This document shows positions 6,011-30,000 of a DNA stretch of 32,000 bases, piece after piece; the stretch's first letter is position 1; each line of letters begins with the position of its first letter. Made by a program: the position numbers and the translations under genes. Source of the stretch: Bellilinea caldifistulae (lineage in GTDB: Bacteria; Chloroflexota; Anaerolineae; Anaerolineales; Anaerolineaceae); assembly GCF_001306055.1 (NCBI RefSeq), contig NZ_LGHJ01000011.1, positions 1 to 32,000 on the forward strand. The letters are read 5' to 3'. The notes below the pieces were generated by a model. It saw nothing but the letters and a program-made list of their open reading frames with translations, made no database searches and was not told the DNA's origin.

Positions 6011-7380
6011 CTGTCAATTCTGCGCGTTGGTTCACATAAAATGTTACTGAAGTAAGATGGTTAGCTCAAAAGAAAATGTTACCGGAGAGCTAGCCATGGT
6101 CGAGATAGAACGAATGAGCATCAATGAACGCCGAAAATATCTGTACAAGATGTGGGAACGCTATCGCAACGCCAGTCGCAAGGAAAAGGGATATCTCTTG
6201 GACGAGATGCAAGCGGTAACGGGGATGCACCGCAAGTCACTGATCCGGCTTATGAGAGGACGGCTGTCACGGAAGCGACGCAGCCGTGAACGCGGGCGAA
6301 CCTACGGGGCGGCGGTGGAAGACGCGGTGCGGGTGGTTGCGCGCAGTCTGGATTATCCGTGTGCCGAACGGCTCAAGGGGGCGCTTGTACCCGTGGCGCT
6401 GCACCTGCAGCGCTTGGGGGAAGTGCGCCTTGAGCCGGAGACGCTGGAGTGCTTGAGACGGGTGAGCATTTCGACCTTGAAACGCATGCTCAAACGGGCA
6501 GGGCGGAGCGAGGCGAAACTGGCTTACCGCAAGCCGCCCCGCCCAAAGCGCCACTCGCTGCGCAGTGCCTACCCAATGCGGCGGATTGCCTGGGATGTGG
6601 CGGCTGCGGGACACTTTGAAGTTGACCTGGTCTTGCATTGTGACGAGGACACCCGTGGTGAATTCATTCACACCATCCAGATGGTGGACGTCAAGACCGG
6701 TTGGAGCGAAATTGAAGCCGTGTATGGGCGCAGTTATCTGGCGATGAAAGACGGCTTTGAGGCGATACTCCGGCGACTACCTTTCCCGATCCGGGAATTA
6801 CACCCAGATAACGGAAACGAGTTTTTCAACGACCATCTGCTGCGCTTCTGGCAAGACAAAATCCCGGCATTAGTTATCTCCCGTTCGCGTCCCTATCACA
6901 AAAATGACAACCGCTTTGTCGAAGAAAACAATCATAGTCTGGTGCGGGCCTATGTTGGTCATGGGCGTCTTGTTCGCCTCGATCAACTCCTTATCTTGCG
7001 CCAATTGTATGCCGCTTTGTGGTTGTATCATAATTTCTTCCAGCCAGTCATGCGCACCCAACAAAAAATGGTCGTCAATCCGCAACGCTACCGGCGCGTC
7101 TTTGACATCCCCAAGACCCCCTTCGAACGCTTGTGTGAGGTCGAAACTTTACCTCCCGCGCTCCTCACCCAACTCCAAACCCTCCACCGCCAAACCAATC
7201 CCCTCCAGTTACGCCAGCAGATCGCAGACCTGATTGACCAACTCTGGGCATCCTCTCCTCAAAAGACCGCTCAACCCGTGAATATCCACCATACCCTCAG
7301 AAAGGAGGTTGACCCTTTAGTAACCTTATTCTTTTGAACCATTCAACCACCCTCGGTAACATTATCTTTTGACTTGACAG
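6011..7380 (+). mobile_element. Insertion sequence carrying an rve-family transposase (boundaries approximate)
   Basis: Single transposase ORF. Both proposed ends start with TGTCAA (6012-6017; reverse complement of 7374-7379). Both carry an internal AATGTTAC block (6040-6047; reverse complement of 7347-7354), but with different spacing, so the inverted repeats are weak. No target-site duplication recognised. The right end truncates a small minus-strand HTH ORF. Confidence 0.45.
6057..7337 (+). CDS. DDE transposase, retroviral-integrase (rve) catalytic core
   Basis: 426-aa ORF with an N-terminal HTH-like region. Candidate DD(35)E triad: HFEVDLV ... HPDNGNEF ... about 35 aa ... RFVEENNHSLVR. 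An alternative start at 6096 (MVEIERM) has a better GGAG. Confidence 0.85.
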   Translation: MVSSKENVTGELAMVEIERMSINERRKYLYKMWERYRNASRKEKGYLLDEMQAVTGMHRKSLIRLMRGRLSRKRRSRERGRTYGAAVEDAVRVVARSLDYPCAERLKGALVPVALHLQRLGEVRLEPETLECLRRVSISTLKRMLKRAGRSEAKLAYRKPPRPKRHSLRSAYPMRRIAWDVAAAGHFEVDLVLHCDEDTRGEFIHTIQMVDVKTGWSEIEAVYGRSYLAMKDGFEAILRRLPFPIRELHPDNGNEFFNDHLLRFWQDKIPALVISRSRPYHKNDNRFVEENNHSLVRAYVGHGRLVRLDQLLILRQLYAALWLYHNFFQPVMRTQQKMVVNPQRYRRVFDIPKTPFERLCEVETLPPALLTQLQTLHRQTNPLQLRQQIADLIDQLWASSPQKTAQPVNIHHTLRKEVDPLVTLFF

Positions 7381-7505: not shown

Positions 7506-7568
7506 GCAGAATACAGGGATGGAGTCCCTGTTTTTAGAAAACACTGCTGGTAAAGTGCCCATTGGAAG

Positions 7569-7612
7569 TGACTCACCAGGGACTCGAACCCTGAACCCAC
7601 TGATTAAGAGTC
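7569..7612 (-). other. Orphan 3' half of tRNA-Lys(CUU): att-site remnant
   Basis: The minus strand reads GA-CTCTTAA-TCAGT-GGGTT-CAGGG-TTCGAGT-CCCTG-GTGAGTC-A. That is an anticodon loop with CTT, the 3' anticodon stem, the variable loop, a full T-arm, the 3' acceptor strand and the discriminator. No matching 5' acceptor strand or D-arm lies upstream; that position is occupied by the integrase terminator. Confidence 0.7.
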
Positions 7613-7615
7613 TGT

Positions 7616-7672: not shown

Positions 7673-8497
7673 TCATTGTGACATTGGCACGCTCAAGTTA
7701 ACCATCGGGAAGTACTGTCCTAAATCAACGGCCTCTATTGTTCGAGTGTAATACTCAACCATTCGAATATCAGACCACCGACCCGCAACCTGTACCAATC
7801 GACTCGGCGCGCCTGCCTTGATTGCCATTACTGCAAAAGTTCGCCGAAAATCATGCGGAGAGAGTTTTATACCAATTTTTTCTCCCCAGCGCCGAATGAT
7901 AACCCTCAAACCATCCCTGGTCACCTGGAAAAGCCGCTCGTCTTGCGGATTTCTGTATTCTATCCATTTTTGCAACGCATCTTTGGTCAAAGGTGAAAAG
8001 AAAACCCTTTCCCAACGACCACCTTTTACTCTCACAAGAATCTCTCTCTTCTCAAGAGCCAGGTCTTTCATGTTGATTGTAACAATTTCGTTCACTCTTA
8101 ACCCGGTATCCAAAGCCAGACTTGCAATCGCGAAATCTCGACATCCTTTTGAAGTAGTCAAATCAAATGAAGCGAATAACTCACGGATTTGATGTTCATT
8201 CAGAGTTCTGCCGGGTCTCGTTTTTTCTCTCTTAATACGCACTCGCAAAACTGGATGATCACCAATTTTCCACTTGACAAATTGCCGAATAATTCCGCAG
8301 GCAACATATTGACGAGAATTTCCCCACCCCGTTGAACGAAGAAAGCTTAATAAATCAATTGCAGTGCAAGACTCAATATCTACTCTTTCCAGAAATGCTT
8401 TCAATATTGCCCGATATTGTTCTTCTGTTTTCGAACTGAACCCCTTTTCAGCGAAGAACAATTCCATCTCGGTATGATATTGTGTGAAAGTTGACAT
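7673..8497 (-). CDS. Tyrosine recombinase / phage-type integrase
   Basis: ORF trimmed to MSTFTQYH (GGAGG 7 nt upstream). N-terminal SAM-like core-binding region (EEQYRAILKAF). Catalytic-domain motifs: LDTGLRVNE (Arg I), SPHDFRRTFA (H-x-x-R), GRWSDIRMVEYYTR (catalytic Tyr). Confidence 0.9.
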   Translation of the reverse strand: MSTFTQYHTEMELFFAEKGFSSKTEEQYRAILKAFLERVDIESCTAIDLLSFLRSTGWGNSRQYVACGIIRQFVKWKIGDHPVLRVRIKREKTRPGRTLNEHQIRELFASFDLTTSKGCRDFAIASLALDTGLRVNEIVTINMKDLALEKREILVRVKGGRWERVFFSPLTKDALQKWIEYRNPQDERLFQVTRDGLRVIIRRWGEKIGIKLSPHDFRRTFAVMAIKAGAPSRLVQVAGRWSDIRMVEYYTRTIEAVDLGQYFPMVNLSVPMSQ

Positions 8498-8605
8498 GGT
8501 TTTTCCTCCGCAATGAAGTGGTAATTTTTTGGTTTTACGATTCTGCCACCTCAAAACGGTTCTGAAAATTAAAATTTTTTGCTATACTATTAACCGAAAA
8601 CAAAC

Positions 8606-18563: not shown

Positions 18564-18571
18564 AACAGCAA

Positions 18572-18593
18572 GAGAGGGCTTTTCTGCCCTCTC
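18572..18593 (+). terminator. GC hairpin just after the operon stop (weak terminator)
   Basis: GAGAGGGC-TTTTCT-GCCCTCTC lies 9 nt after the stop. The trailing sequence CTGCTTTCC is only moderately T-rich. Confidence 0.4.
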
Positions 18594-18595
18594 CT

Positions 18596-18628
18596 GCTTT
18601 CCGTAGTTCACGGATACCCTCACGAAGT
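18596..18628 (+). other. Degenerate, inverted partial copy of the 5' half of the neighbouring tRNA
   Basis: GCTTTCCGTAGTTCACGGATACCCTCACGAAGT on the plus strand. Compare the tRNA sense strand (minus strand): GCCTCCGTAGTTCAAGGGATAGAACAGCACCCTCACGAAGT. Exact blocks: CCGTAGTTCA (10 nt), GGATA, ACCCTCACGAAGT (13 nt). Confidence 0.65.
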
Positions 18629-18674
18629 AAATTCATCATACTCGCTATCCCTGAAAATTTCAAGCCCTTCCAAC

Positions 18675-18703: not shown

Positions 18704-18714
18704 CGGCAAGCGGG

Positions 18715-18786
18715 CGCCTCCGGCGGGATTCGAACCCGCATTCACACTTCGTGAGGGTGCTGTTCTATCCCTTGAACTACGGAGGC
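18715..18786 (-). tRNA. tRNA: anticodon CAC (Val) in the canonical register, but with an Arg(ACG)-like body and an atypical anticodon arm
   Basis: Cloverleaf read by eye: acceptor GCCTCCG/CGGAGGC; D-arm GTTC-AAGGGATA-GAAC; anticodon arm GCACC-CTCACGA-AGTGT (C31.A39 mismatch, G37); 4-nt variable loop; T-arm GCGGG-TTCGAAT-CCCGC; discriminator G. CCA is not encoded. Confidence 0.8.
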
Positions 18787-18828
18787 ATGACACTTGCCGA
18801 GGTCACCCTGGGCGGAGTTGCACCGCCC
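18787..18828 (-). repeat. tRNA-proximal copy of the intergenic hairpin module
   Basis: Plus strand: ...CACTTGCCG-AGGTCACCCT-G-GGCGG-AGTTGCA-CCGCC. It has the same order as the modules at 22833-22883 and 24543-24595 (TTGC, TCAC(C)CT, then a stem with loop AGTTGCA). Confidence 0.55.
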
Positions 18829-18892
18829 CAAGACACTACGCAGGGTGAGATGGCCGGGCTCTTGTAAGCCCGGCTTTGTGTTACGCCGCCTG

Positions 18893-19162
18893 CTACACAC
18901 TCTGCTCGGTCAGCAGTTTCACCGCGGCAATGTGCTTGCAGGGTTTCTGCCGCTTGGTGAAGTCCGGGCAGGTACAAGCCCATGTGCCGTTTTTGGTGAC
19001 CATGTATTCATGGGGTTTCCCGCTCATCGTGGAATTGACCACCCACGCAATTCCGGGAATAAAGACGATGACGGTAAGCTGTTTCTGAATCAGCCCCATC
19101 ATCGCCCGGTAGGCCCGTGCGTTTTGGGGGTCGTCCAACAAGGCATCGCTGGTTTTCGACAT
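18893..19162 (-). CDS. SWIM zinc-finger protein
   Basis: Trimmed to MSKTSDALL (AAAGGAGG 9 nt upstream). SWIM signature WACTCPDFTKRQKPCKHIAAV (C-x-C-x(n)-C-x-H). Confidence 0.75.
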   Translation of the reverse strand: MSKTSDALLDDPQNARAYRAMMGLIQKQLTVIVFIPGIAWVVNSTMSGKPHEYMVTKNGTWACTCPDFTKRQKPCKHIAAVKLLTEQSV

Positions 19163-19210
19163 GGCAGTTGTCCTCCTTTTCCCGGTGCGCCGCACCACAC
19201 CGGGAGAGTA

Positions 19211-19450
19211 TTAGTCTCCCCGGTGCAGCGGGGTTCTGAAAGGTTTGCCAATTGACTTGATGACGGAAATCGGCTGGCCGTACACAATCCCACCATCAGC
19301 AGAACGCCAGGCGTGGGTCGTGTACAACCGCCTGCCCCGTCCCAAGAGCCTCATCCACACCACCCAAAGTTCATCACTCAGGTCAGTGACGATTGTGATG
19401 ACAAAGGTGCTTTTACCAATCCTGACGATTTCGCCCACTTCCGGTCTCAT
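19211..19450 (-). CDS. Hypothetical small protein
   Basis: ATGA start/stop overlap with the upstream gene implies translational coupling. The last ~6 codons run into a conserved leader hairpin, so the true stop or extent is uncertain. Confidence 0.5.
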   Translation of the reverse strand: MRPEVGEIVRIGKSTFVITIVTDLSDELWVVWMRLLGRGRRLYTTHAWRSADGGIVYGQPISVIKSIGKPFRTPLHRGD

Positions 19451-19812
19451 GGCGCATCCTCGATTTGAGCGGGTTCTTCTTCGTCAGTCAGCACCGCGCC
19501 GCAGTCGAGGCAGTGGACTTCCTCTTTCAGGTCGTCCCATACCTCCCCGGCGGAGTAGTGATACCCGCCGGTGGTGACAGCAGTGGTGCGCCGGTGAGGA
19601 CATTCTTCCTGCTGGTGCAGGTAGGCATCGGTCAGGTAGCGGATTTCATCGTAGACATGCTGGTTGAGCGCATCTGCCAGATGATCGGACAGGTACTCGA
19701 TGAAGTTCCGCCAGTCTTTGGGTTTCTCCCGCCGATAAGCCAATGCGTAGAAGATGTCCTCCTCCGTAACGGTGAGGCTGGCAACAATGTTGCCCGGTGT
19801 GATGGATACCAT
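19447..19812 (-). CDS. Hypothetical protein (121 aa) with C-terminal CxxC pair
   Basis: GGAAGGAGG 7 nt upstream of the ATG. Protein-like acidic composition. ...ECPH...HCLDCG... Confidence 0.65.
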   Translation of the reverse strand: MVSITPGNIVASLTVTEEDIFYALAYRREKPKDWRNFIEYLSDHLADALNQHVYDEIRYLTDAYLHQQEECPHRRTTAVTTGGYHYSAGEVWDDLKEEVHCLDCGAVLTDEEEPAQIEDAP

Positions 19813-19978
19813 AGCAATCCTCCTTCCCCCGGCGCGTCCCGCACCGCTCCGGGGAATGTGGTGATTCCCCGTGCGGGCGGGTTGATGGGAAAAGAAAGGT
19901 GCAGCGTTTTGCAGGCGTATGTAACCATGTTAAGGTGCAGAAAGTCGGCAGGGGCGGGGTGAGGCCCCTGCCTTTGCG

Positions 19979-20773
19979 CTAAACCGCTCCGTCCCCAACG
20001 GCGGGCTCTGCCAGCCCGCCGGCGATCTGATTGAACTTCACCAGCAGGTCATCCCGCAGGAAGGTCAAATGCAGATTGCCGTTGCCGTAGCGTTCCCACT
20101 TGAAGTACTCGGTCTCGCCCTTGCGGGCTGAGGACAGGCCGTCTACCAGCGGGCTGCTGTACGAATCGAACGGGAAGGGCTTGCCGTCCAGCAGGTGAAA
20201 GATTTTATCCACCTGAATCAGGTGGCGGCGGGGTCGTGGATAGATGTTCACATAGAAGGGCGTTTCGTGAACCAACCCTTCCAGGATGATTTTCTTCCCC
20301 ACACTCACCCGCCCGTTCTTCTGGTTGGTCTTGTACTCGTCATGCCAGCCTGCTCCGGGGCGAAGGAAGTCAAAGGCTTCGCGAATCATCTCCGCAAAGA
20401 GTTCCTTTGCCGCTCCACCGGCCAGCAGTTCCATGATGGCTTCCTCGCTCGGCTCAGGGATGTTTCTTATCCCCTGCCCGTTGCCTTCCAGAAACTGCTC
20501 GAAGCGTTCCAGCCGAGAGACGGACAAGACCTTTTCCACCCCGCTGGCTCCCAACAAAGCCTGCCAGGTCGAGCGTTTCAACTCCACCAGCCGGTCATCG
20601 CGGAACATGACTGCCCGGTAGGATACTGCCGAGCCAATCCCGGCGTTCTCTGCCGCTTTCAAGACAGCCTCTAACTCCCGGCAGTGGTACTCGATGGCGG
20701 CTTTGGTCTGCCGGTAAGCCGAAAGCACCTCGCTGACCGTGTAGGGTTTTTGGATTTCGCTAAAAACAGACAT
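19979..20773 (-). CDS. Hypothetical protein (264 aa)
   Basis: The listed 327-aa ORF is trimmed to MSVFSEIQKPYTV (GAAGGAGG 7 nt upstream). The removed N-terminal extension translates the structured leader. Any resemblance to DUF4942-type proteins is only a vague recollection. Confidence 0.7.
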   Translation of the reverse strand: MSVFSEIQKPYTVSEVLSAYRQTKAAIEYHCRELEAVLKAAENAGIGSAVSYRAVMFRDDRLVELKRSTWQALLGASGVEKVLSVSRLERFEQFLEGNGQGIRNIPEPSEEAIMELLAGGAAKELFAEMIREAFDFLRPGAGWHDEYKTNQKNGRVSVGKKIILEGLVHETPFYVNIYPRPRRHLIQVDKIFHLLDGKPFPFDSYSSPLVDGLSSARKGETEYFKWERYGNGNLHLTFLRDDLLVKFNQIAGGLAEPAVGDGAV

Positions 20774-20952
20774 GGTTTTCCTCCTTCTCCCGCCGTCTGC
20801 ACCCGGCGGGAAACTGATGTGTTTCCCCCGGTGCAGCGGGGTTGAAGGACGATTGGGACGGTTGCGGTATTCGCCTGTTAAGGTGCGGTGCAAACACCCT
20901 TGCGGGTGGTATTGCCGGATGGCGCAGGCAGGTAGCCTGCGCTTGTTTGAAA

Positions 20953-21360
20953 TCAGGCGCATTTCTTTTCGGCAATCTTTCGGATGGTGTACAGCACTCC
21001 AGAGATGAAGTCCTGGTCATCCCACTCGGCATTGATCCGTTCAACAACCTTGTCCAGCCCGTTTTCAGCCCAATATAGTTGGAACGCTAGAGGCAGCCGG
21101 TTTCGGACAAGACCGTACTGCAAAGCTGAGTAAATGACATACTCTCGTGAAAACGGTATAGAGTTGGCGAGCCGTTTTTCTATTTCTTGCAAGGCTTTCT
21201 CTATGGAGATTTCATGAATCACAATTGTGACAACACCTTTTTCCCGCCTCTCAATGTGAAAGCCGTTTTGCAAGGCTTTTTCTCGCAAGCGAAAACACTC
21301 CCAACCGTCTTTACACTCCTGCATTGACCCGCCATAATATTGAGATTTTCGCATTGCCAT
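20953..21360 (-). CDS. Hypothetical protein (135 aa)
   Basis: AGAGGAGG upstream of the ATG. Balanced composition in a region where spurious frames are Arg/Pro/Ala-rich. Confidence 0.65.
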   Translation of the reverse strand: MAMRKSQYYGGSMQECKDGWECFRLREKALQNGFHIERREKGVVTIVIHEISIEKALQEIEKRLANSIPFSREYVIYSALQYGLVRNRLPLAFQLYWAENGLDKVVERINAEWDDQDFISGVLYTIRKIAEKKCA

Positions 21361-21813
21361 CGTTTTCCTCCTCTGCCCCTGTCCGTGACCAGGGGCGAAT
21401 CTTGTGGATACGCCCCGTCACGGCGGGGAAAAGAGAAGGTTGAGAAAATGCGCCTGATATTCACCTGGTAAGGTTCGGAATGCGTTGTTTGGGCAGCCGC
21501 ATCCCTGCCGTTCCCACGTACGACTTTACCGGTGGTGCATTTGCACTCGCGGAAGTCTCGGCACTATTGTCGGAGCCGTGCCGCCCGGATGTTCCTGTGG
21601 TCGCTCCGGTCTGTCCGGCGTCCCGGTCTTTTGCTATCGCGCTCCTGGCGTGCGCTCACGCACAGCGGATAAGTGCCTAGCAAGTGCGTGGAATGGACTG
21701 GTTAAGGTGCAGTGCCAGATCAATCGCTCCGGCGGGCAGGAATTGGCGGTTAGAGCCGGACTGGGTAAGCCCGGCTCGTCCCCGCAGGGGGGTGCAGATG
21801 ACGGTCAATCGGA

Positions 21814-22626
21814 CTAGCCAGCGTAGGCGGCTTGTAGTGCGAGGAAGGCGCGCGCCATGCGCTGCAAGTGGACGTTTTCAGGCTTGCCTTGCGGGTCGAA
21901 GCCCTTGCCGTCCGTGTTGGCGCACCAGCGCACCCAGCCCTGACCTACCGGCCCGGACTGCCACACTTCGGCAATGGTCTTGTCCTTCTGCTTGCCGAAG
22001 TGGATGACCGTTTGCCCGGGGTCGGCCAGTTCGCCTTCCCCAGCCGGTTCAGCAGCGGCGGGAGCAGGCTGCGGTTTCGGCGCAGGGGCAGGTACAGGTT
22101 TTGGCGCATACGCTTTGCCATTACCGTTGCCGTTCGGGGCGGGTTGGAAGTCCTTGTGTGACCGCAAACCCAGATACACGCTTTCCTGGAAGCCGATGTT
22201 CGACACGGCATTCCCCAAAGCGTTGGTAATCGCCCCTTTCATGGCGTAGGCAATGTTGGCGTTCTCGCTCGCACCGGTGGCATGCACGGAGCAGTTGTAC
22301 TGGATATTCCCGTCAACGAGTTTGTACCAGAAGCGCAGGTGGGTGAGAATGGCCGCATACACGCCGTACTCGTTGCCCTTTGCGTTGGTGCGGGACTCGT
22401 AGCGGTATTCCAGATTGGCAGGGTCGTACTCATACCCCCAGCCCAGACCGCACAACCCGAACACATGGTTGAGGGTTTTCCTCATCCAGTTCGGGTCAAT
22501 ATCGGTTAAGTCAACCGCTCCCGGCAGTGCCTTGTACGCCCCGGCGGGCAGTTCTTGATCCAACTGCTGGATGGCTTCTTCCAGCGTCAGACCGGTCAGG
22601 GTGAAGATGTTGGAAAGTGTGGACAT
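21814..22626 (-). CDS. Rad52/22-family single-strand annealing protein (phage recombinase-like)
   Basis: GAAGGAGG upstream of the ATG. DPNWMRKTLNHVFGLCGLGWGYEY...ANIAYAMKGAITNALGNAVSNIGF matches the Rad52/Sak-type pattern (...kgA.TdAlkra...G). A Pro/Ala-rich linker leads to a small C-terminal domain. Confidence 0.65.
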   Translation of the reverse strand: MSTLSNIFTLTGLTLEEAIQQLDQELPAGAYKALPGAVDLTDIDPNWMRKTLNHVFGLCGLGWGYEYDPANLEYRYESRTNAKGNEYGVYAAILTHLRFWYKLVDGNIQYNCSVHATGASENANIAYAMKGAITNALGNAVSNIGFQESVYLGLRSHKDFQPAPNGNGNGKAYAPKPVPAPAPKPQPAPAAAEPAGEGELADPGQTVIHFGKQKDKTIAEVWQSGPVGQGWVRWCANTDGKGFDPQGKPENVHLQRMARAFLALQAAYAG

Positions 22627-22832
22627 GGTAAAAACCTCCTTCGTGAGATTGTTTCACGCCCCCGTCCGCAGCCGGGGGCAAACGAGTGTGTTGCCCTGCT
22701 GCGTCAGGGGAGTACCTGAACGGCCTCGCTCCACCGCTCACGCTTGACCGTCAGCGGCAGAGGGAGACCGTCCAGGCAGAAGGCTTTACCAGTCCCTGTC
22801 CCTTCGCCCTGCTTGATTGACCGTTTTCACCT

Positions 22833-22883
22833 GTTAATGTGCTGCCCCTTGCGGGGAAATCACCTGCCCGGAGTTGCACCGGG
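22833..22883 (-). repeat. Complete copy of the intergenic hairpin module
   Basis: Plus strand: GTTAATGTGC-TG-CCCC-TTGC-GGGG-AAA-TCACCT-G-CCCGG-AGTTGCA-CCGGG. Confidence 0.6.
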
Positions 22884-22938
22884 TAACCTCGTCAGGTGGA
22901 GTTTTCAGATGGGCAGGGCTGGGTAGCCCTGCCAAGTG

Positions 22939-23214
22939 TTACTCGCTCGCCTGAAATTCGGAAATCTGCGTCCGCCATATCAACTCCAACAAGGGAGTGA
23001 CCTGGCTCTGCCAGTCCGGGACTACCTTCGTGAGGCATTCCAGACACAAGGCGTCTCCATCCACCACAGGGACGGGACGCAGGGGTAAGTCGCTCAGACA
23101 CATATCGCAAATGACCTCGTCCGCCGCCAGAGTCGGGCCAACAACCTCGACATCGCCATAATGCAAAATATAGGCGGGGCGTTCTTCGGGTTCCCAAAGG
23201 GTAATCGTTGTCAT
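22939..23214 (-). CDS. Hypothetical small protein with CxxC...CxxC (zinc-ribbon-like)
   Basis: AAAGGAG upstream of the ATG. ICDMC...CLEC. It is the first gene of the leftward gene string, next to the operator. Confidence 0.6.
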   Translation of the reverse strand: MTTITLWEPEERPAYILHYGDVEVVGPTLAADEVICDMCLSDLPLRPVPVVDGDALCLECLTKVVPDWQSQVTPLLELIWRTQISEFQASE

Positions 23215-23331
23215 GGCTGTTCTCCTTTCGGGTCAGTGCCGCACCACTGACCCATGTAGGTATGAGTCAGTGGCTGGAGCGGCAGCCCGATGGAGAGAGG
23301 CGAGCGATATAACTTTGTTAAGGTGCGGGAG

Positions 23332-23360
23332 TTGACACTCGCAGTCATTTGTTATAACAT
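23332..23360 (+). promoter_or_regulatory. Sigma-70-like promoter for the RHH gene
   Basis: TTGACA (23332-23337), 17-nt spacer, TAACAT (23355-23360). It overlaps the palindromic operator. GGAG lies 8 nt before the ATG at 23395. Confidence 0.5.
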
Positions 23361-23376
23361 TGTTATAACAAATGAC
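23344..23376. promoter_or_regulatory. 33-bp perfect palindromic operator in the divergent control region
   Basis: GTCATTTGTTATAAC-ATT-GTTATAACAAATGAC: 15-bp perfect inverted arms with a 3-nt spacer. It also contains TTGTTATAACA twice in direct order. Confidence 0.75.
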
Positions 23377-23394
23377 CACTTGGAGAAATTCTCT

Positions 23395-23808
23395 ATGAAG
23401 ATCAAAGGCTTTCGTCTTTCTGACGAAACTCAGACCCAGATCGCCTGGCTGGCCAAACGAAAGGGGGTAACGGCTACCGACATCGTCCGCATGGCCGTCG
23501 CCGAGATGTTCCAGCAGGAAATCGCACGCCTGCCCCGCTTCCGGTTGCACGAACGGGTCTTGTATCTCAACGAACAGCCTGTGGTGTATTGCACCGACCG
23601 CTTGCTGACCGAACTCCCCGAAACGTTTCTGCTTCAACTGGAGCACGGTACGGCCGATCCCATAGAGACGATGATCTATCTCATCTTCACCATCGCCCGC
23701 ATCGGGGAGCCTGTTCAGATTGATGAACAGGCTCTGAATGACCTCATCGGCTGGTCGCTCCCCTTCCCCAAAAACGAGGAAAGCAATCAGGATGAGGGGC
23801 GCGGGTAG
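23395..23808 (+). CDS. Ribbon-helix-helix (CopG/Arc-like) regulator with C-terminal extension
   Basis: Trimmed to MKIKGFRLSDETQTQIAWLAKRKGVTATDIVRMAVAEMF. This is the classic RHH layout: beta strand (KGFRLS), then two helices. Confidence 0.7.
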   Translation: MKIKGFRLSDETQTQIAWLAKRKGVTATDIVRMAVAEMFQQEIARLPRFRLHERVLYLNEQPVVYCTDRLLTELPETFLLQLEHGTADPIETMIYLIFTIARIGEPVQIDEQALNDLIGWSLPFPKNEESNQDEGRG

Positions 23809-23818
23809 CGCCCCTCAT
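23792..23818. terminator. 11-bp GC hairpin between convergent genes
   Basis: ATGAGGGGCGC-GGGTA-GCGCCCCTCAT overlaps the RHH stop codon. There is no clear T-run, so terminator function is uncertain. Confidence 0.4.
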
Positions 23819-23828
23819 GGGGCAAGAG

Positions 23829-24062
23829 TCACGTCTTGGGGCGCATCATCTCGATGGACACCAGGATAAGACGGAGGGTCTCCAGGACTTCAGGTGAAAT
23901 CTCGACCTGCTGACCTGCGAGAAACTCTTCCACCTCCTTCCTGGCCTTCGGGTCTCGAATGCGCTTGCGAATCTCACGAACGAGTTCTTGCGCTTCTTTC
24001 TCCGAAAGAACACGCCCACCGATCCGCACCCCGTGCTCTTGCCAGTCACGGTTTTTAGGCAT
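23829..24062 (-). CDS. Hypothetical small protein (77 aa), helical and charged
   Basis: Trimmed to MPKNRDWQEH (GGAGG 7 nt upstream). The removed extension is Arg-rich leader translation. Confidence 0.55.
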   Translation of the reverse strand: MPKNRDWQEHGVRIGGRVLSEKEAQELVREIRKRIRDPKARKEVEEFLAGQQVEISPEVLETLRLILVSIEMMRPKT

Positions 24063-24542
24063 ACCGCACCTCCAGAAGGAATTGGGGCGGCAACCGTCCT
24101 GGCGGGTGACCTTCCCCCGTCTTTTCGAAATGAGACGGCGGAAAGTCACGCTTCCGAAAGCCTTTGCTGGTTGTTAAGGTGCAGTTCCGGGTTTATCCGC
24201 CCGGTCGGTGATGTCGGCATGGCAGGCAGGGAGGGTAACCCTGCCTGACGGGGGATTGGACGCCGCAACCCGTTCCCGGACTTGCCGGAGTTTGCGCCCG
24301 CTCCCCCTGACTAGGTTGGGGTCTTGCAGGCACTCACCTCCTTTCGGACGGACTTTGGCGTCCGGCGGGGCAGAGCCGGAATTGTGTCTGTACGGCTTCC
24401 GCTTTGCCGTACACATCCCCCAGTCTTGAAGAGGTCATCTCGATCCCTATCTTGCGGGGAACGCCTGATTTATTCTGCTCCCGCCGTGACCGCCCTGCCG
24501 GATTTGCACCGGCGCTACTGCGAGGGCGGTTTGGCTTGCTTT

Positions 24543-24595
24543 GGTAAGGTGCGATGCCCTTGCGGGTAGGTCACTCCTACTGGACTTGCACCAGT
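24543..24595 (-). repeat. Complete copy of the intergenic hairpin module
   Basis: Plus strand: GGTAAGGTGC-GAT-GCCC-TTGC-GGGT-AGG-TCACTCCT-ACTGG-ACTTGCA-CCAGT. Confidence 0.6.
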
Positions 24596-24656
24596 ATTTC
24601 GCACTCTGCGGAGTGGTGAATTTGGAGAGGGGCTTGTGGCCGCTCTCCGGGGGGAC

Positions 24657-24818
24657 TTACCGCCTGCGGTTCGTCAGGATTGCCAGTAACGCTTCTCGCT
24701 CCTCTTGGTCTCTTGCCTTCTGTATCAGCCGATAGAGCAGATATTTTTGGGAAAGGTCGTAAGCAATCAGCAGCACGGCAAGGACGATCAGCAGGGGTAT
24801 CACTTCGGTCAGGTTCAC
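24657..24818 (-). CDS. Possible small single-pass membrane protein (53 aa, GTG start)
   Basis: AAAGGAGG lies 10 nt upstream of the GTG. (V)NLTEVIPLLIVLAVLLIAYDL is a TM helix, followed by a basic/acidic tail. The rest of the listed 159-aa ORF is leader. Confidence 0.4.
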   Translation of the reverse strand: MNLTEVIPLLIVLAVLLIAYDLSQKYLLYRLIQKARDQEEREALLAILTNRRR

Positions 24819-25027
24819 ATTTGGCTCACCTCCTTTCGTTCCCCACGCCGGGGGAAGAGAGCAGCCCTCTCCCGCCGGAATGGAGAACGAAAGAGACTTG
24901 TCCCAGTGGACACCGGTGAGGGTGAACCGCTCGATTGTAAAAGTCCCGCCACGGGCTTTGTCAGCCGGTGGAATGTGGCTGTCCGGGAGTTGCACCCGAA
25001 AGCGGCTTTGACCGTCAGCCGATAACG

Positions 25028-25072
25028 AAAAAGCCCGTTGGCAAATGCTTTCACATTCGTCCAACGGGCTTT
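25028..25072 (-). terminator. Strong rho-independent terminator
   Basis: On the minus strand: AAAGCCCGTTGG-19 nt-CCAACGGGCTTTTTCGTT. Confidence 0.65.
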
Positions 25073-25195
25073 GTGGCCGGTTTGACGCTCTTTCAGGCGG
25101 AGGGTCTTGTGGACGCTCCTGTCCGTATTGTAGCAAAAGTCAAAACCGCACGCAAGTAATCTGATCTCGAATTGTATATTATTCCTGTTTGGCGC

Positions 25196-25224
25196 TTGAC
25201 GCCAAGCGTTGTGCGCTATATAAT
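25196..25224 (+). promoter_or_regulatory. Near-consensus sigma-70 promoter of higBA (probably leaderless)
   Basis: TTGACG (25196-25201), 17-nt spacer, TATAAT (25219-25224). The GTG start at 25231 is only 6 nt downstream and no SD is present. Confidence 0.7.
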
Positions 25225-25230
25225 AATCCT

Positions 25231-25515
25231 GTGATCAAGAGCTTCAAGGACGAAGAAACCCTGAAGATTTATCGCCGCGAGCGTTCTCGCAAGCTGCCTC
25301 TGGAAATCCAACAAGTCGCTCTGCGAAAATTGCGTATGTTGAACAACGCCACCTCTTTGAACGATTTACGCGTGCCACCCGGCAACCGCCTGGAAAAACT
25401 CAGCGGTGACCGCGATGGACAATGGTGCATTCGTATCAACGATCAATGGCGCATTTGTTTTGTCTGGCAGGAAGATCATGCTTATCAGGTTGAAATCGTG
25501 GATTATCACCGATAG
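25231..25515 (+). CDS. higB: HigB/RelE-family toxin (plasmid maintenance system killer type)
   Basis: (V)IKSFKDEETLKIYRRE...LRMLNNATSLNDLRVPPGNRLEKLSGDRDGQWCIRINDQWRICFVW...VEIVDYH is the canonical HigB pattern. It is followed by the cognate HTH antitoxin. Confidence 0.85.
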   Translation: MIKSFKDEETLKIYRRERSRKLPLEIQQVALRKLRMLNNATSLNDLRVPPGNRLEKLSGDRDGQWCIRINDQWRICFVWQEDHAYQVEIVDYHR

Positions 25516-25520
25516 AGAGG

Positions 25521-25838
25521 ATGATGATGAGCGAAAAGTTACATCCCATTCACCCCGGTGAGGTTCTTCTGGAAGAGTTCCTCAAACCGCTGAATTTGAG
25601 CCAGCACCGTCTGGCGATTGAGATCGGCGTGGACCCGCGCCGCATCAATGAAATCGTCCTGGGGGAACGCAGTATCACCGCCGACACCGCCCTGCGGCTC
25701 GGACGTTATTTTGGGGTTTCACCTCAGTTCTGGATGGGGTTACAGGCCGAATATGATCTAGATGTGGCTTTGGACAAACTGGGTGAACGCCTGGAACGAG
25801 AAGTCCGACCGCGCCGGGTCACCCCCACTGCTGCTTGA
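25521..25838 (+). CDS. higA: HigA-family antitoxin (XRE-type HTH, VapI-like)
   Basis: HPGEVLLEEFLKPLNLSQHRLAIEIGVDPRRINEIVLGERSITADTALRLGRYFGVSPQFWMGLQAEYDL. Confidence 0.9.
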   Translation: MMMSEKLHPIHPGEVLLEEFLKPLNLSQHRLAIEIGVDPRRINEIVLGERSITADTALRLGRYFGVSPQFWMGLQAEYDLDVALDKLGERLEREVRPRRVTPTAA

Positions 25839-25848
25839 TGGGATCATC

Positions 25849-26667
25849 TCACACCCCCTCCACTGCATCCTGTATTCGCTCCGCAGTCGGGTGCAGGTAA
25901 CGCCCGGTCGTTTCAATCCGGGAATGTCCCAGAATCGCCGCAAGCGTGGCCACATCCACCCCCTTTTCAATCGCACGGGTGGCAAAGGTGTGCCGTAAGG
26001 TGTGCGGGGTGGCTTCCACCCCGGCGATCCGCGCATACTCCGCTACCATGCGCTGCACATCCCGCTCCGCAAGCGGCCCACTGCTGCGGGAGAGAAACAG
26101 CCAATCCTCCGTCACCTTCGGTCTTTCGTCCAGCCAGGCTTTCAAAGCCTGACGCACCTCGCCGTTCAATGGCACACGGCGGGTCTTGTTACCCTTGCCG
26201 CCTCTCACCGTCAACCAGCCCGAACGCCCGTTCATCTCGACATCTCCCAGCCGCAGGCGCACCACCTCACCCACCCGCAAGCCTGCCCGTGCCATCAGGT
26301 TCAGGATGGCGGTGTCCCGCTGGCTGCCTTCGGCGGCGGCAAACAGCCTGCCCAACTCACGGGCGGAGAGAGCTTTGAGGGGCGGGGTGACCTGCTTTGG
26401 ACCTTTCACCTTCAAGGTGCGCCCCAGGTGGCGCAAGAGCGAGCGGATGGCTGCCAGGCGTAGATTGACGCTGGCCGGTGAGAGCCTGCGAACGGTTTGC
26501 AGGTAGGCGGTGTAGTCCTTCACTTCAACGGCGGTGAGCAGGTTCCAGTCCACGCCTGCGCCGGTGGTGCTGGTGTACCACTCGGCAAATTCGTCCAGTG
26601 CAGAGCGATAGCGTTCTGCCGTGCGGGGGCTGGTGAGGATTGACAGGAAGTCCTCTATGGGGTTCAT
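25849..26667 (-). CDS. Tyrosine recombinase (XerC/XerD-like integrase)
   Basis: 272 aa. N-terminal core-binding domain (TAERYRSALDEFAEWY...YLQ). Catalytic ARAGLRVGEV, TPHTLRHTFAT, LGHSRIETTGRYLH. Confidence 0.9.
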   Translation of the reverse strand: MNPIEDFLSILTSPRTAERYRSALDEFAEWYTSTTGAGVDWNLLTAVEVKDYTAYLQTVRRLSPASVNLRLAAIRSLLRHLGRTLKVKGPKQVTPPLKALSARELGRLFAAAEGSQRDTAILNLMARAGLRVGEVVRLRLGDVEMNGRSGWLTVRGGKGNKTRRVPLNGEVRQALKAWLDERPKVTEDWLFLSRSSGPLAERDVQRMVAEYARIAGVEATPHTLRHTFATRAIEKGVDVATLAAILGHSRIETTGRYLHPTAERIQDAVEGV

Positions 26668-26694
26668 TGGTGCGGTTTCCTCTCGTTAAAAACA

Positions 26695-26861
26695 TTGTGC
26701 GACGCAGTTTAGAGGGGTTTTTAGCCCCAAAAACGGGGGTTTTGAGGGGTTTTTGGGGTGTTTTGGGTCGTACAATGTGTATTGTACGACTATGTTGTGC
26801 GACGTGCAAAATGAGCCGATTGCACCTGAATTCTAAGGATTTGTTAACCTGTTGTTAACCT
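26695..26861. promoter_or_regulatory. Repeat-rich region upstream of the integrase (candidate arm-type/att sites and G-tract block)
   Basis: TTGTGCGACG at 26695-26704 and 26795-26804, exactly 100 bp apart. Palindrome GTCGTACAAT-GTGT-ATTGTACGAC at 26767-26790. Tandem TTGTTAACCT at 26841-26850 and 26852-26861. G-tracts at 26735-26767. Confidence 0.5.
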
Positions 26862-27036
26862 ATGCAACCTCAAAAATACCCTTACGGAAGCCTCCCTGGC
26901 AGCCTGCCCCTGAGTATCATAAAGAAAAGAAGCTTTTTTTCAACTTGAACTTGCCACTTCGACACCGCCCGATTGTTTCATCAAAAAATCACTATGGTTT
27001 GGCAGGCGAGAGTGAAACGATCGGGAGGTTTTCCTG

Positions 27037-30000
27037 ATGAACCCTATTTTGAACCTTCTTATTGTTCTAGTCCTTGTTCTCAACCCCTTTCTGACATCCT
27101 TCATCCCGCTCGGCACTTCCGTACCACCCAAGGGTTATTCAATACCTGATAACATCAATCGCCTCCTCGATTCTCTCCAGCAACAATCATCCCCTTTACC
27201 ATCCCCAGAACCCAATCCAACCCAAGAAATCACCCCGTCACCTCCTAACGAGGGGGAAGAATCCATCAACCCAACGGTGGATTTCACCCCCACACCTTCC
27301 CCGGCAATCCCGCCCGCAGCAAACGAAACCCCTACGCCGCCCCTCCAGGAAACGCAACCGACAGATATCCTGTCGTTTCAAGAGATACTGAGACAGGGTT
27401 TTTTCATCGAAGTCGCTTCTCCCTTGCTGGTCGAAAATGAAAAAATCCTCTTGCGATGGCATTTCCCGGAAACCTTCTCCACCAATGTCGGTGAACTTCG
27501 TCTTCAAATCATCCTGCCGCAGGGAATTCAACCATCCGAAGGGCAGGATGGCAAATGGGAAGAACCCATCTTTACACTTTACCCAAAAGAAACACAGGGA
27601 GAATTAATTCTGATCCCGCAAAAAGTGGAGGATAACCTGCTGGAGATTCGCGCAACCGGTTGGGTAAATGATGATCCCATCTTTTCGGATAACCTCTTTC
27701 TGGCCCGACCCAATTTAGTTGCGGGTATAACCGAAGCCAGGGCAGTAGATGCCCAAAATCGTGTTTCGGTAAGTTTTCCATCCGAATCTTTTTCAGAGGA
27801 ACTTTCGGTGGTGATCCTGCCGGTCTCGGACAAGCATAGATGGATCAGCGGTGCAGACCAGACAGCCTTTGAGATCCTTGCCATCAACAAGGCAGGTGAA
27901 ACGGTAAAACACTTCGAAAAACCGCTAAAAATCGAAGTCCAATATGACCCCGAATTGTATGGTGGCAACGAAGCAGCCCTTTATCTCTCCTACTTGGACG
28001 AAGAAAAAATGGAGTGGCTCTACCTGCCCAGTCGAGCAGATGCCGAAACCCATATTCTAACCGCATATACCGATCACTTCACCCTGTTCAACCTCAATTC
28101 CGACAACCTGCAGTCCCCGCTCATGAACCGGCCGGAAAGTTTTCAAGTCGCCGATTTCACCGGGGCAGGAACCTTCTCTATCCCAATCAATCTGCCACCC
28201 GGGCCGGGTGGTTTTCAACCTTCCTTGTCCCTCGAATACAACAGCCAGATCGTAGATACCGCCAACATTGTTACGCAGGCCAATTGGGTCGGCATGGGTT
28301 GGTCACTGGATGTTCCGTATATCTTCAGAGACATGCACGGCACTTCTTCGGATACCAGTGATGATACTTTTCATCTGATCCTTAACGGCGTGTCCCATCG
28401 CCTTTTGAAGGATGCCAACGGCGTTTATCACACCGAAAGTGAAACCTTCATCAAGATCAATTATTACCAGTACACCTCATACGAACCCTGGTGGGAGGTG
28501 TGGGACAAAGAGGGTAACCGCTACCTCTTTGGACAACGATATGTCCATTTCCGCGACGCTCCCGATAATCGCTACATCAGCCGCTATCTTCGTATAAGAG
28601 GGCAGGATTGGGCATTTGAAAACTACCGCTGGTCGGTCAATACCATCACTAACAAGTTCGGCAAGGAAATTCGCTTTACATATACCGAGTTTACCAAGCC
28701 GGTCGACCGCGATGACAATGGCTATAACGATGATTATTACGACCGTTCGGTGCTTCCCGAGTCGATCATCTACCCGAATAACCGTTATCGGGTATTCTTT
28801 ACCTTTGCTCATGATCGAACCGACTACCGCACCTGGTGGGACAGCACGCCGCTCAATTTCTTCTACGACAAAAGTCGTCTGGTTTCTCTAAAAATCCAAC
28901 ACAATCCCGACGGCAATCCCGCTTTCACCAACGCCACCACCGTATATCAATACAATTTCTTCTACAATCTGGACAACGTCTCCGGCATGAGTTCTGCCCC
29001 CATCTTCCCTAACTATACCTGGGAGGCCGGTGGAAAGACGCTGGCACTGAATGCCGTGCAACTGGTTGCCTTTGACAGCAATAATCAGCCCTCTTATCAG
29101 CCCATGGTCAAATTTTATTACAATGATCAAATGCATCTGACCAAAGTGGACAATGGTTTCGGGGGCATTTACGAATTCACCTACTCCCGATGGTACTCGT
29201 GGGCGAGTCCGGGCAGTGATTTCGATAACGGCAACCCATGGGATAACCCTAACTTCCCCGCCGTTTGGAGAAAAAATCTCAGCCATTACATCCAACCCGG
29301 CCAGGATTTGAACAATGTAGTCGAATATGAGTGGGGGATTGGCAGTGAGGATATGCTCGTCAGAACTCAATTCCCGTATAAGGAATATCAAAATGTCTTC
29401 CTGGGCAGTCAATATGAATTGCACATCAAAATTCAAATGCCCGCAATCGCTCCAAATCCTTCCTCGATGAATCTTTTCATCGGCATGGATGATGGGCTGG
29501 GAAACACCTACAACACTGGCGGACAAACCGGGATGGATGTTTTCCCAATGAGCAAACCAAATAACGCCACGCTCAATCTCAACTTAAGTTATACCCTTCC
29601 TGCTTCTTCCCGACCCGTCAACTGGGCCAATAACGGCAGTGGTCTAACCAAATTTCGCATTGGCTGCCGCTGGTCCCCCAATAATTATTGCCGTCTCATC
29701 GAACTGCAATTCCGCCGATTACCCACTTACTACCGCGTGAGCAGCAGAAAATTGACCGAGCAGATCACCGGCAAAAGCTACACGTTTTCCTACACCTACG
29801 AAGGCGCTTCGATGAACAACGAAATCGGTTTCGGCGAGTTCAACCAACCATTATCTACATTTTACGACCCACCCTTCACCGTCTTTCGCGGTCACAAGAA
29901 AGTCATCCAGATCGGCCCCGATCAACGTAAAACAACTACCGAGTTCTACCAGCTCACCAAAGACCGGCCTTATTACAGTGAATTCTATGTAACCGGCTCG

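Follow-up and report, generated by a model that had tools for sequence, protein, structure and literature searches.

Putative rRNA-type BoxA signals and tRNA-like minihelices in the intergenic spacers of an integrated element of Bellilinea caldifistulae

The element and its intergenic box

This report concerns a repeated intergenic module in the first 32,000 nucleotides of contig NZ_LGHJ01000011.1 of Bellilinea caldifistulae (hereafter, the window). A GC-rich stretch at about 18.8–26.7 kb, with 55–61% GC vs. 42–50% in the flanking DNA, is an integrated mobile element of small size, one protein of which maps to the B. caldifistulae (Chloroflexota, Anaerolineae) assembly GCA_001050215.2, contig DF967971.1. 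At the end of the element stands the gene of an Xer-like tyrosine recombinase, the integrase (25849–26667, minus strand), next to which lie HigBA (25189–25838, plus strand) and, further in, a ribbon-helix-helix (RHH) regulator (23395–23808, plus strand). Ten genes or small open reading frames (ORFs) run leftward, including those for a Rad52-like protein (21814–22626), a DUF4942 protein (19979–20773), and a SWIM-finger protein (18893–19162). A tRNA-Val(CAC) gene (18712–18787, minus strand) lies downstream of the last of these genes, in the same orientation. In our opinion, the module found between the leftward genes combines two signals that would act at the RNA level on the minus strand, namely the BoxA of ribosomal RNA (rrn) operons, serving Nus antitermination, and a tRNA-like minihelix (TLS), serving as an RNA processing signal. 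We give this reading, which is drawn from sequence, a probability of roughly 60%.

The coordinates, boxes, and loop copies listed in an earlier note on this DNA were all recovered in the sequence. The linear box of the module, GTTAAGGTGC on the plus strand, occurs as five exact and two one-mismatch copies at 19929–24552, all on that strand; the more divergent variant at 21467–21476 was confirmed as well. Thus, eight copies lie within 19927–24552, all of them intergenic and all on a single strand. With up to one mismatch allowed, the whole window contains nine matches to GTTAAGGTGC, two of which are unrelated and lie elsewhere, vs. 1.6 expected, and no shuffle reached nine. Read in gene sense (minus strand), the box is GCACCTTAAC(AA). 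Its full extent is about 12–20 nt, GCACCTTAACAA plus (C/G)TGAA(T/A)A, an extension that accounts for the longer TTC(A/G)CCTG(T/G)TAA context recorded earlier; the box takes the form GCACCUUAACAA, with the variants GAACCUUACCAG and GCACAUUAACAG. Past the stop codon of the preceding gene, the order in gene sense is a GC-rich hairpin without a U-tract, an optional covarying hairpin, an optional CCC-GCAA-GGG hairpin, and then the box. For five of the eight boxes the start codon follows 112–126 nt downstream, and in these cases the interval holds a C/T-rich stretch and two GC hairpins, followed by the Shine-Dalgarno sequence.

Related elements were compared in a paralogous element of the same genome (L004), five metagenomic loci (L005–L009), and 35 loci of labelled Chloroflexota genomes (L010–L044). 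Homologues of the Rad52-like protein number in the hundreds in Chloroflexota metagenomes, one paralogue being encoded by the second element of the same Bellilinea genome, and no relatives were found among viral contigs or GenBank phages. The proteins of elements that share the box are only 45–50% identical, and gene order is shuffled among these elements. In the relatives, a generalised box, G[ACT]AC-N-TTA[AC][ACG]A, gives 62 matches on the gene strand vs. three on the opposite strand, typically 1–12 nt past a hairpin and 105–140 nt before the Rad52-like gene.

The eight copies, all read on the minus strand and described here in the direction of transcription, are as follows. The variant GCACCTTACCAA at 24541–24552, a form that is also present in rrn spacers, is preceded by a GNRA hairpin, ACCC-GCAA-GGGC (24556–24567). 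The copy GCACCTTAACAA at 24171–24182, 120 nt upstream of a 77-aa gene, has directly upstream of it, in the boxB position, the hairpin CCGGG-CGGAUAAA-CCCGG (24187–24204). The CGGAUAAA loop of this hairpin is conserved and its stems covary (CCGGG/CCCGG vs. GACGGGA/UCCCGUC; L004, about 8345–8366; L011, about 4872–4890). A second GCACCTTAACAA copy, at 23315–23326, opens the second leftward unit, next to the operator and promoter of the RHH gene and 112 nt upstream of a 91-aa gene; in L004 and L011 both this copy and its flank are conserved. Within the leader of the Rad52-like gene lies the variant GCACATTAACAG + GTGAAAAC (22831–22842), with orthologues in L004, L007, L010, L011, and L012; the GNRA hairpin CCCC-GCAA-GGGG (22845–22856), located between TLS and box, is conserved in the same five loci. 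The 453-nt spacer after the Rad52-like gene holds two boxes, the first of which is GCACCTTAACCA at 21699–21710. The other copies are the variant GAACCTTACCAG + GTGAATAT at 21465–21476, 116 nt upstream of the ATG of a 135-aa gene; GCACCTTAACAG + GCGAATAC at 20875–20886, 113 nt upstream of the DUF4942 ATG and just downstream of a GNRA hairpin read from the sequence, ACCC-GCAA-GGGT (20896–20907); and GCACCTTAACAT at 19927–19938, which belongs to the 12-mer class of the Chloroflexi rrn leader boxes and lies 126 nt upstream of the ATG of a 121-aa gene, with a GC hairpin ahead of it. Other GC hairpins lie 1–12 nt upstream of the remaining boxes and of the boxes in related elements.

The box and the rRNA operons of Chloroflexota

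The forms taken by the generalised box (GCACCTTAACAA, GAACCTTAACAA, GTACTTTAACAA) resemble rrn BoxA, which in E. coli is TGCTCTTTAACAA. The box agrees at 9 of 11 positions with the gamma-proteobacterial consensus GYTCTTTAANA (PMC5725501), and at 10 of 12 with the boxA of cyanobacterial spacers, GAACCTTGAAAA (PMC8461337). Because the first 44 loci contain no rRNA genes, metagenome contigs were scanned for Chloroflexi probe targets. The resulting rrn set consists of contigs with a GNSB941 16S probe target, amounts to 371 kb, and does not include the operon of Bellilinea itself; a second phylum-probe target, CFX1223, is also carried by 68 of the 74 rrn loci of sufficient length (probe sequences from PMC7387413).

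Among the 35 Chloroflexi 16S leaders at loci with at least 120 nt of leader, 26 contain G[ACGT]ACCTTAACAA or a near variant, the chance expectation of the box pattern being about 0.016 per leader. These boxes lie mostly 95–111 nt ahead of the 16S 5' end and 15–25 nt downstream of a TTGACA-N17-TAnAAT promoter, and are followed by CTGAAGAGTGATAGGAAG. About 27 of 55 16S-23S spacers carry GCACCTTAAAAA, GCACTTTACCAA, GAACCTTACCAA, or GTACCTTAACAA, followed by CTGAATAG; of these, GAACCTTACCAA is the one that bears on the window variant at 21465–21476. The spacer boxes are located downstream of tRNA-Ile and tRNA-Ala, usually straight after a hairpin, the loop of which is sometimes GNRA (e.g., L086 and L120). 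Over the 371 kb, the box pattern gives 75 sense matches in leaders or spacers and 10 elsewhere, six of the latter being one conserved antisense site in 16S. The (C/G)TGAA(T/A)A extension is common to the boxes of the element and those of the rrn operons. In addition, a 22-nt matrix trained on the rrn copies finds as its four best matches in the window four of the boxes noted earlier, those at 22831–22842, 21465–21476, and 20875–20886 scoring 16.4, 16.3, and 15.8, respectively.

Since both the box and its downstream extension are found in Chloroflexi rrn leaders and spacers, we infer that the box is the Chloroflexota rrn BoxA, that is, a predicted binding site of NusB-S10 for processive antitermination. 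BoxA is the RNA site that brings in NusB/NusE and on which the antitermination complexes of rrn operons and of lambda are nucleated (PMC12360218). The CCC-GCAA-GGG hairpin would then be boxB-like, as it appears to occupy the rrn boxB position; the rrn-type order, a boxB-type hairpin followed by boxA, is seen with GNRA hairpins at three boxes and with GC hairpins at the others. A pseudoknot between box GCACC and hairpin GGUGC was considered and rejected, the box variants GAACC and GUACC not covarying with the hairpin.

One proposal of the earlier note, a boxB/nut-like antitermination site, was thus right in kind, and the GCAA hairpin stands where boxB would be expected. It was only partly right, because the recognisable antitermination signal is the linear box and not the covarying hairpin to which the note had tied the idea; that hairpin belongs to the TLS described below. 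The lambda nut site is likewise a boxA of a mobile element, placed on its own transcripts beside a small GNRA-type hairpin and presumably serving read-through with host Nus factors. In lambda, however, boxA precedes boxB, boxA is weakened, the N protein takes part, and there are two copies. In the element the hairpin precedes a boxA of full rrn-type consensus, the copies are many, and no N- or Q-type antiterminator was matched among the element proteins in Pfam, NCBIfam, or PHROGs.

Could the boxes instead be promoter elements, one per gene? The earlier note had pointed to a TTAACA hexamer as a possible -35 element, and an alternative sigma factor or activator site may be envisaged as well. 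TTAACA resembles TTGACA, the integrase promoter region contains TTAACA-N17-TAGAAT, GAAC(C/T)TT variants are similar to the -35 elements of extracytoplasmic function (ECF) sigma factors, and the spacing of five boxes from their start codons, 112–126 nt, is constant. However, no conserved -10 element is present 16–18 nt past the boxes on inspection, a promoter scan found none at the boxes, and no sigma factor was recognised among the element proteins in Pfam, NCBIfam, or PHROGs. Moreover, the rrn box lies 15–25 nt downstream of a canonical -10 and occurs again in the internal spacer; it is therefore a transcribed sequence. We regard a promoter role as quite improbable, and the hexamer finds no support as a -35. 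Loop and box were also rejected as promoters of the sigma-54, sigma-70, or ECF type: on inspection, spacing was inconsistent and a second element lacking. A tandem AGGTTAACAA repeat (26840–26866, minus strand), upstream of the integrase gene, overlaps the promoter-like TTAACA-N17-TAGAAT; it is probably unrelated to boxA, with which it has TTAACAA alone in common.

The strict co-orientation of the boxes with the genes, one asymmetric 12-bp box per spacer, also recalls the stoperators and start-associated sequences of mycobacteriophages, which are short asymmetric intergenic repeats, all oriented with transcription. The boxes would in that case be double-stranded DNA sites for a regulator of the element, the RHH protein or a small basic protein, that blocks elongation when the element is silent; the element does encode an RHH regulator with a perfect palindromic operator. 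We consider this very unlikely. Stoperators and start-associated sequences are phage-specific repressor sites in DNA or motifs linked to ribosome-binding sites, whereas the 12-mer of the element, together with its downstream extension, is a host rRNA-operon signal found phylum-wide in rRNA leaders and spacers. Immunity-type operators normally diverge fast, yet the box is kept across elements whose proteins have diverged to the extent given above, and the RHH protein has a different operator, at 23344–23376. The latter is a perfect 16-nt inverted repeat, GTCATTTGTTATAACA / TGTTATAACAAATGAC, which overlaps the RHH-gene promoter TTGACA-N17-TAACAT and is likely the RHH operator acting on divergent promoters.

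The tRNA-like minihelix

The covarying hairpin of the module has the loop motif GGANTTGCACC, of which there are five exact copies, all on the plus strand, at 18814, 22870, 24500, 24582, and 24986. Every stem reported for it does pair, and the loops are nearly invariant, as had been stated. The 5-bp stem described earlier (P2) is in turn enclosed by an outer stem of 6–7 bp (P1), which also covaries; the TCAC(C)CT previously listed as a separate part of the module is one P1 strand. The 3' strand of P1 follows P2 directly, and the 5' strand is 9–17 nt away from it. The P1 pairs are TCACCCT/AGGGTGA, CACCTG/CAGGTG, ACCGCCCT/AGGGCGGT, CACTCC/GGAGTG, and GGCTG/CAGCC. In the commonest subtype, the segment separating P1 from P2 is a 3-bp mini-hairpin, GCA-nAG-UGC, which itself covaries (GCG-CAG-CGC). 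Minimum-free-energy folds give this three-part shape.

The copy farthest downstream (18800–18850; all copies are on the minus strand) has P1 UCACCCU/AGGGUGA and P2 GGGCGG-UGCAACU-CCGCCC, and matches the covariance model described below with E=4e-9. It was thought to abut the tRNA directly; in fact, about 14 nt separate its end from tRNA-Val, an arrangement seen also in L011 and L030. The copy at 22857–22901 (E=1e-9) combines P1 CACCTG/CAGGTG, the junction ACGAGGTTA, and P2 CCCGG-UGCAACU-CCGGG, and its minimum-free-energy fold agrees. At 24487–24531, P1 is ACCGCCCU/AGGGCGGU and P2 is GCCGG-UGCAAAU-CCGGC (E=1.5e-4, fold z-score -3.7), while the copy at 24568–24618 has P1 CACUCC/GGAGUG, a mini D-arm GCA-GAG-UGC, and P2 UACUGG-UGCAAGU-CCAGUA (E=2e-13, fold z-score -2.9). 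A divergent subtype at 24975–25022, with P1 GGCUG/CAGCC, an inner hairpin, and P2 UUCGGG-UGCAACU-CCCGGA, stands right after a strong intrinsic terminator; it is missed by the class-1 covariance model and is conserved in L004 and L010. An extra TLS with a UUCGAGU loop, together with a boxA-like GCACTTTACCAG, is located outside the GC-rich element (7547–7614), just downstream of a second tyrosine-integrase gene. The ORF of that integrase (7673–8554, minus strand) is followed by a terminator and then by the TLS, and an rve-family transposase ORF (6057–7337, plus strand) adjoins.

The claim that the stems covary around a fixed loop is borne out in two alignments. These are an N-padded manual alignment and a model-derived one; in the padded alignment two rows displaced by MAFFT were counted against the structure. 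The manual alignment covers 37 copies, and both partners vary in 13 of its 15 pairs; the rows were picked for pairing, which makes the percentage paired partly circular and leaves the diversity of pair types as the informative part. Nine copies served to build a covariance model, which, searched in 434 kb, gave 28 matches with E<0.01, 27 of them on the gene strand and four in the window. In the model-derived alignment, 11 of 14 pairs are compensatory and 98.6% of cells are paired, counts that lean toward the structure of the model to which this alignment was fitted. Homologous elements keep both the compensatory changes and the position: at the site upstream of the Rad52-like gene such changes are seen across six elements, in the P1 series CACCCT/AGGGTG, CACCCC/GGGGTG, CACTCC/GGAGTG, and CACCTG/CAGGTG and in P2 GGCGG, GCCGG, and CCCGG. 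Hairpins with the TGCAAnT (UGCAAnU) loop number 30 on the gene strand vs. three on the opposite strand in relatives, and G-U pairs are seen solely in the gene-sense reading; therefore, the folding strand is that of the transcript (or that DNA strand).

The 7-nt loop keeps U1, C3, A4, and A5 of the tRNA T-loop. In distant elements the loop is a canonical T-loop, UUCGAGU or UUCGAUU, and the junctions are D-loop-like and contain GG (e.g., UGGUAG). An acceptor-like stem placed on a stem of 5–6 bp, a 7-nt T-loop, and covariation are thus found together, without an anticodon arm or full cloverleaf. We accordingly read the covarying hairpin as a tRNA-like acceptor/T-arm minihelix of 45–50 nt, with a D-arm stub in place of the D-arm and no anticodon arm. 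It typically follows a pyrimidine, precedes an unpaired A and a U/C-rich trailer, and lies mostly 5–40 nt upstream of a boxA. The comparison with Rfam that had been suggested earlier returned, over the window and at both gathering and E-value thresholds, tRNA only and no match for the TLS. The antisense of the TLS at 24487–24531 weakly matches an antisense-tRNA-like Rfam model over the acceptor and T arm only, and the same model also matches the antisense of the real tRNA. A resemblance to a cobalamin-riboswitch-like GGUGnAAnUCC hairpin was discarded, no Rfam match being obtained even at E<=10. No TLS was found in the 371 kb of Chloroflexi rrn contigs, by pattern search or by the covariance model, and the TLS is therefore not itself a part of the rrn operon. 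This absence bears as well on whether the module is a genome-wide repeat of the kind formed by repetitive extragenic palindromes or miniature inverted-repeat transposable elements: the window copies lie within the element, with one more beside the second integrase, and in the DNA covered here the module does not behave as such a repeat would. The TLS appears to be a new, element-specific structured RNA, absent from Rfam and confined, in the DNA searched, to this family of Chloroflexota elements.

A different explanation is that the hairpins are recombination sites, in single-stranded or duplex DNA, or tRNA remnants of repeated integration, with the genes behaving as integron-like cassettes. 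A tyrosine recombinase gene does stand at the end of the element, one hairpin lies by a tRNA and another by the second integrase, gene order differs among related elements, and GTTAAGG is loosely similar to the attC core GTTRRRY. This reading is likewise very unlikely, and the folded single-strand recombinase site put forward earlier finds no support. The integrase is a plain Xer-like one, scoring 93 bits against the TIGR02249 cutoff of 265 and aligning in two pieces that skip the IntI insertion; there are no attC-type R''/R' pairs, and no inverse core site pairs with the boxes (attC core RYYYAAC...GTTRRRY). An integron/attC origin was rejected on how the integrase scores against the families and on the lack of paired cores. 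Stem covariation with G-U pairs on the gene strand only, together with the T-loop consensus, indicates RNA. In addition, the junction and loop are more conserved than att remnants would require, orthologous copies precede the same gene in six elements, and no direct repeat of at least 10 nt, as expected of attachment sites, joins the two ends of the element.

The main alternative for the TLS is that of an element-specific, nut-like partner of boxA, i.e., either a counterpart of boxB, bound by an N-like protein that has escaped recognition, or a put-like RNA with a direct effect on the polymerase. Its usual place shortly ahead of boxA fits this, as does its confinement to the element family, whereas the box is a host-type signal. 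A fixed loop on variable stems is typical of hairpins recognised by protein, the first copy follows a strong terminator, and the element encodes several small uncharacterised proteins, one of which has an Arg/Lys-rich stretch. We nevertheless find it rather unlikely, considering that the canonical T-loop and D-loop-like junctions of distant relatives suggest tRNA mimicry, that no N/Q-like family was found in the databases named above, and that three copies precede a real tRNA without a boxA. Processing of the TLS by RNase P and/or RNase Z is the reading that we favour, with modest confidence. RNase P recognises the stack of acceptor and T arm and the elbow (PMC4919913), and plant mitochondria use tRNA-like t-elements to mark the ends of their mRNAs (PMC1920247).

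Transcription, processing, and the wider context

On the reading favoured here, NusB-S10 (NusE) would bind each box on the nascent RNA and nucleate a Nus antitermination complex on RNA polymerase. Since a box follows almost every gene, the complex would be formed or renewed in each untranslated spacer. RNA polymerase would thereby pass the GC-rich hairpins after genes and resist Rho in the long, structured, and partly C-rich spacers, so that transcription reaches the end of each leftward unit (the first from about 25.2 to 23.8 kb, the second from about 23.35 kb as far as the tRNA, at 18.7 kb). The TLS would be cut by RNase P at its 5' edge and/or by RNase Z after the trailing unpaired A; such cleavage would split the polycistronic RNA into units, the 3' ends of which would be shielded by the GC hairpin before the cut. 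In its succession of TLS, hairpin, and boxA the module mirrors the 16S-23S spacer of the host phylum, where tRNA(s) and then hairpin(s) come ahead of boxA, and the element seems to borrow the rRNA transcription machinery of its host for the expression of its own genes. Close to where the first leftward unit begins, past candidate sigma-70 promoters (25178–25247) and immediately ahead of a TLS, there is a strong intrinsic terminator (25027–25077, minus strand; -29.6 kcal/mol, then UUUUU). In distant relatives an intrinsic terminator stands between boxA and the Rad52-like gene. The positions of these terminators fit with antitermination, as does the GC hairpin, devoid of a U-tract, past most genes.

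Several observations weigh against this picture. The promoters of the leftward units are candidates only, and a box located upstream of its promoter would stay untranscribed. The hairpins after genes have no U-tract, so that a termination to be overcome is not evident, and the segments past the boxes are clearly C-rich and G-poor in just three to four of eight cases, which makes a rut-like composition merely suggestive. To our knowledge, several boxA copies per operon are unusual among Nus targets. The rrn evidence comes from unlabelled metagenome contigs that were assigned to Chloroflexi through two probe targets. As for the TLS, ARAGORN and Rfam called tRNA-Val (18712–18787) and no TLS in the window, the loop has G at the position of tRNA pseudouridine-55, and no CCA follows the structure. 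Finally, the effect of BoxA can be positive or negative, and its sign here is uncertain; at suhB and hisG, BoxA instead promotes Rho termination or represses translation (PMC5725501, PMC12360218).

Past tRNA-Val and its terminator, a sigma-70 promoter, TTGAAA-N17-TATGAT (18663–18635, minus strand), is followed by an RNA of about 65 nt that ends in a terminator hairpin at 18598–18567 (region 18565–18663, minus strand). The 5' part of this RNA, ACUUCGUGAGGGU-AUCC-GUGAACUACGGA, is complementary to the anticodon arm and the 5' acceptor/D-stem of the tRNA. Anaerolinea thermolimosa (L011) carries an Asp (GUC) anticodon arm on the same tRNA backbone, with a matching change in the downstream RNA; the equivalent tRNA/small-RNA loci are at 7960–8100 of L011 and 615–760 of L030. 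Computed duplexes reach -46 to -49 kcal/mol for cognate pairs vs. -31 to -35 for non-cognate ones. The RNA of about 65 nt is possibly a small RNA directed against the tRNA, which itself could be a cargo of the element rather than its integration target. More tentatively, and at less than even odds, Chloroflexota elements may have rebuilt their spacers as mimics of rRNA spacers, with TLS, boxB-like hairpin, and full-consensus BoxA; wherever one gene gives way to the next, they would recruit the complete ribosomal antitermination/RNA-chaperone complex along with the enzymes of tRNA processing, while encoding no antiterminator of their own. The terminal tRNA with its exchangeable (Val/Asp) anticodon arm and the complementary small RNA would then hint at a linked, tRNA-centred function.

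A further repeated design is common to the leaders of most leftward genes: a C/T-rich stretch comes first, then two GC-rich hairpins with UGCA or UGCG in their loops (for example, CCCC-GCUGCACC-GGGG), the second of which touches the Shine-Dalgarno sequence. These two-hairpin leaders lie at 19180–19233, 19826–19881, and 20788–20841, and the ATGs at 21360, 22626, and 23214 are preceded by matching stretches of 60 nt, all on the minus strand. The same layout precedes the Rad52-like gene in the distant elements L013, L022, and L024. Such a leader may be a translational operator or a standby site. Elsewhere in the element, an imperfect inverted repeat (24833–24893; 30-nt arms, 80% complementary) reaches the Shine-Dalgarno sequence of an ORF (about 24657–24818, minus strand) predicted to encode a small membrane protein. 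Both Bellilinea copies of the element family have a very large RHS/YD-repeat toxin gene, the end of which adjoins the integrase gene (region from 26668–27040 onward in the window, 1–5900 in L004). The other flank is of a defence type: in the window it has type I restriction-modification genes, a HerA/DUF87 ATPase, and a ParB_N protein, and in L004 helicase and methylase genes. L005 and L007 likewise lie next to restriction or DUF499/DUF1156-type genes.

BoxA itself is known, while the TLS is a new structured RNA motif. The boxes of the element are similar to those of rrn operons in their 12-nt sequence and extension, sense orientation, location in untranslated RNA, and hairpin immediately upstream. 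In contrast to an rRNA operon, with one leader copy and one spacer copy, the element is protein-coding and has eight copies spread over 6.5 kb, and nothing boxC-like was recognised beside them. Rrn-like BoxA upstream of non-ribosomal genes, modulating Rho-dependent termination, is also found in the suhB leader, in CRISPR array leaders, and at a ParE-like toxin gene. Unlike the boxes of the element, which are repeated and lie 112–350 nt upstream, those are single, often less than 50 nt from the start codon, and able to repress. The literature searched contained no report of multi-copy use of rrn BoxA by such a mobile element. For the TLS, the systems to compare are t-elements, tRNA punctuation, the RNase P substrates of phages P1 (C4) and P4 (CI RNA precursors), and the tRNA-like domain of transfer-messenger RNA (tmRNA). 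As in tRNA-like signals of this kind, an acceptor-like stem is coaxial with a T-arm (11–13 bp in total), the D-arm has a short substitute, and the location is between cistrons; an anticodon arm is absent from the TLS and the tmRNA domain alike. The TLS differs from these signals in its UGCAAnU loop (in the Bellilinea group), lack of CCA, invisibility to tRNA finders and Rfam, and residence in a bacterial integrative element, and its cleavage is a prediction.

BoxA and Nus antitermination have been viewed as a device of rRNA operons, exploited by lambdoid phages through their own N protein; only a few other targets are known to us, all of them single-copy. The TLS is a well-supported new RNA class, and leads to the hypothesis that bacterial mRNA is punctuated by RNase P/Z. 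The working consensus for Chloroflexota BoxA, G[CAGT]AC[CTA]TTA[AC][AC]AA followed by CTGAA, is usable for the annotation of rRNA leaders and for searches for Nus targets in a phylum in which transcription control is almost unstudied. The repeated boxes, if the reading is true, would offer a ready-made natural setting in which to learn how frequently the Nus complex must be reloaded. Full-strength rrn BoxA throughout a protein-coding operon would, likewise if true, allow foreign DNA to evade silencing by Rho in a factor-free manner.

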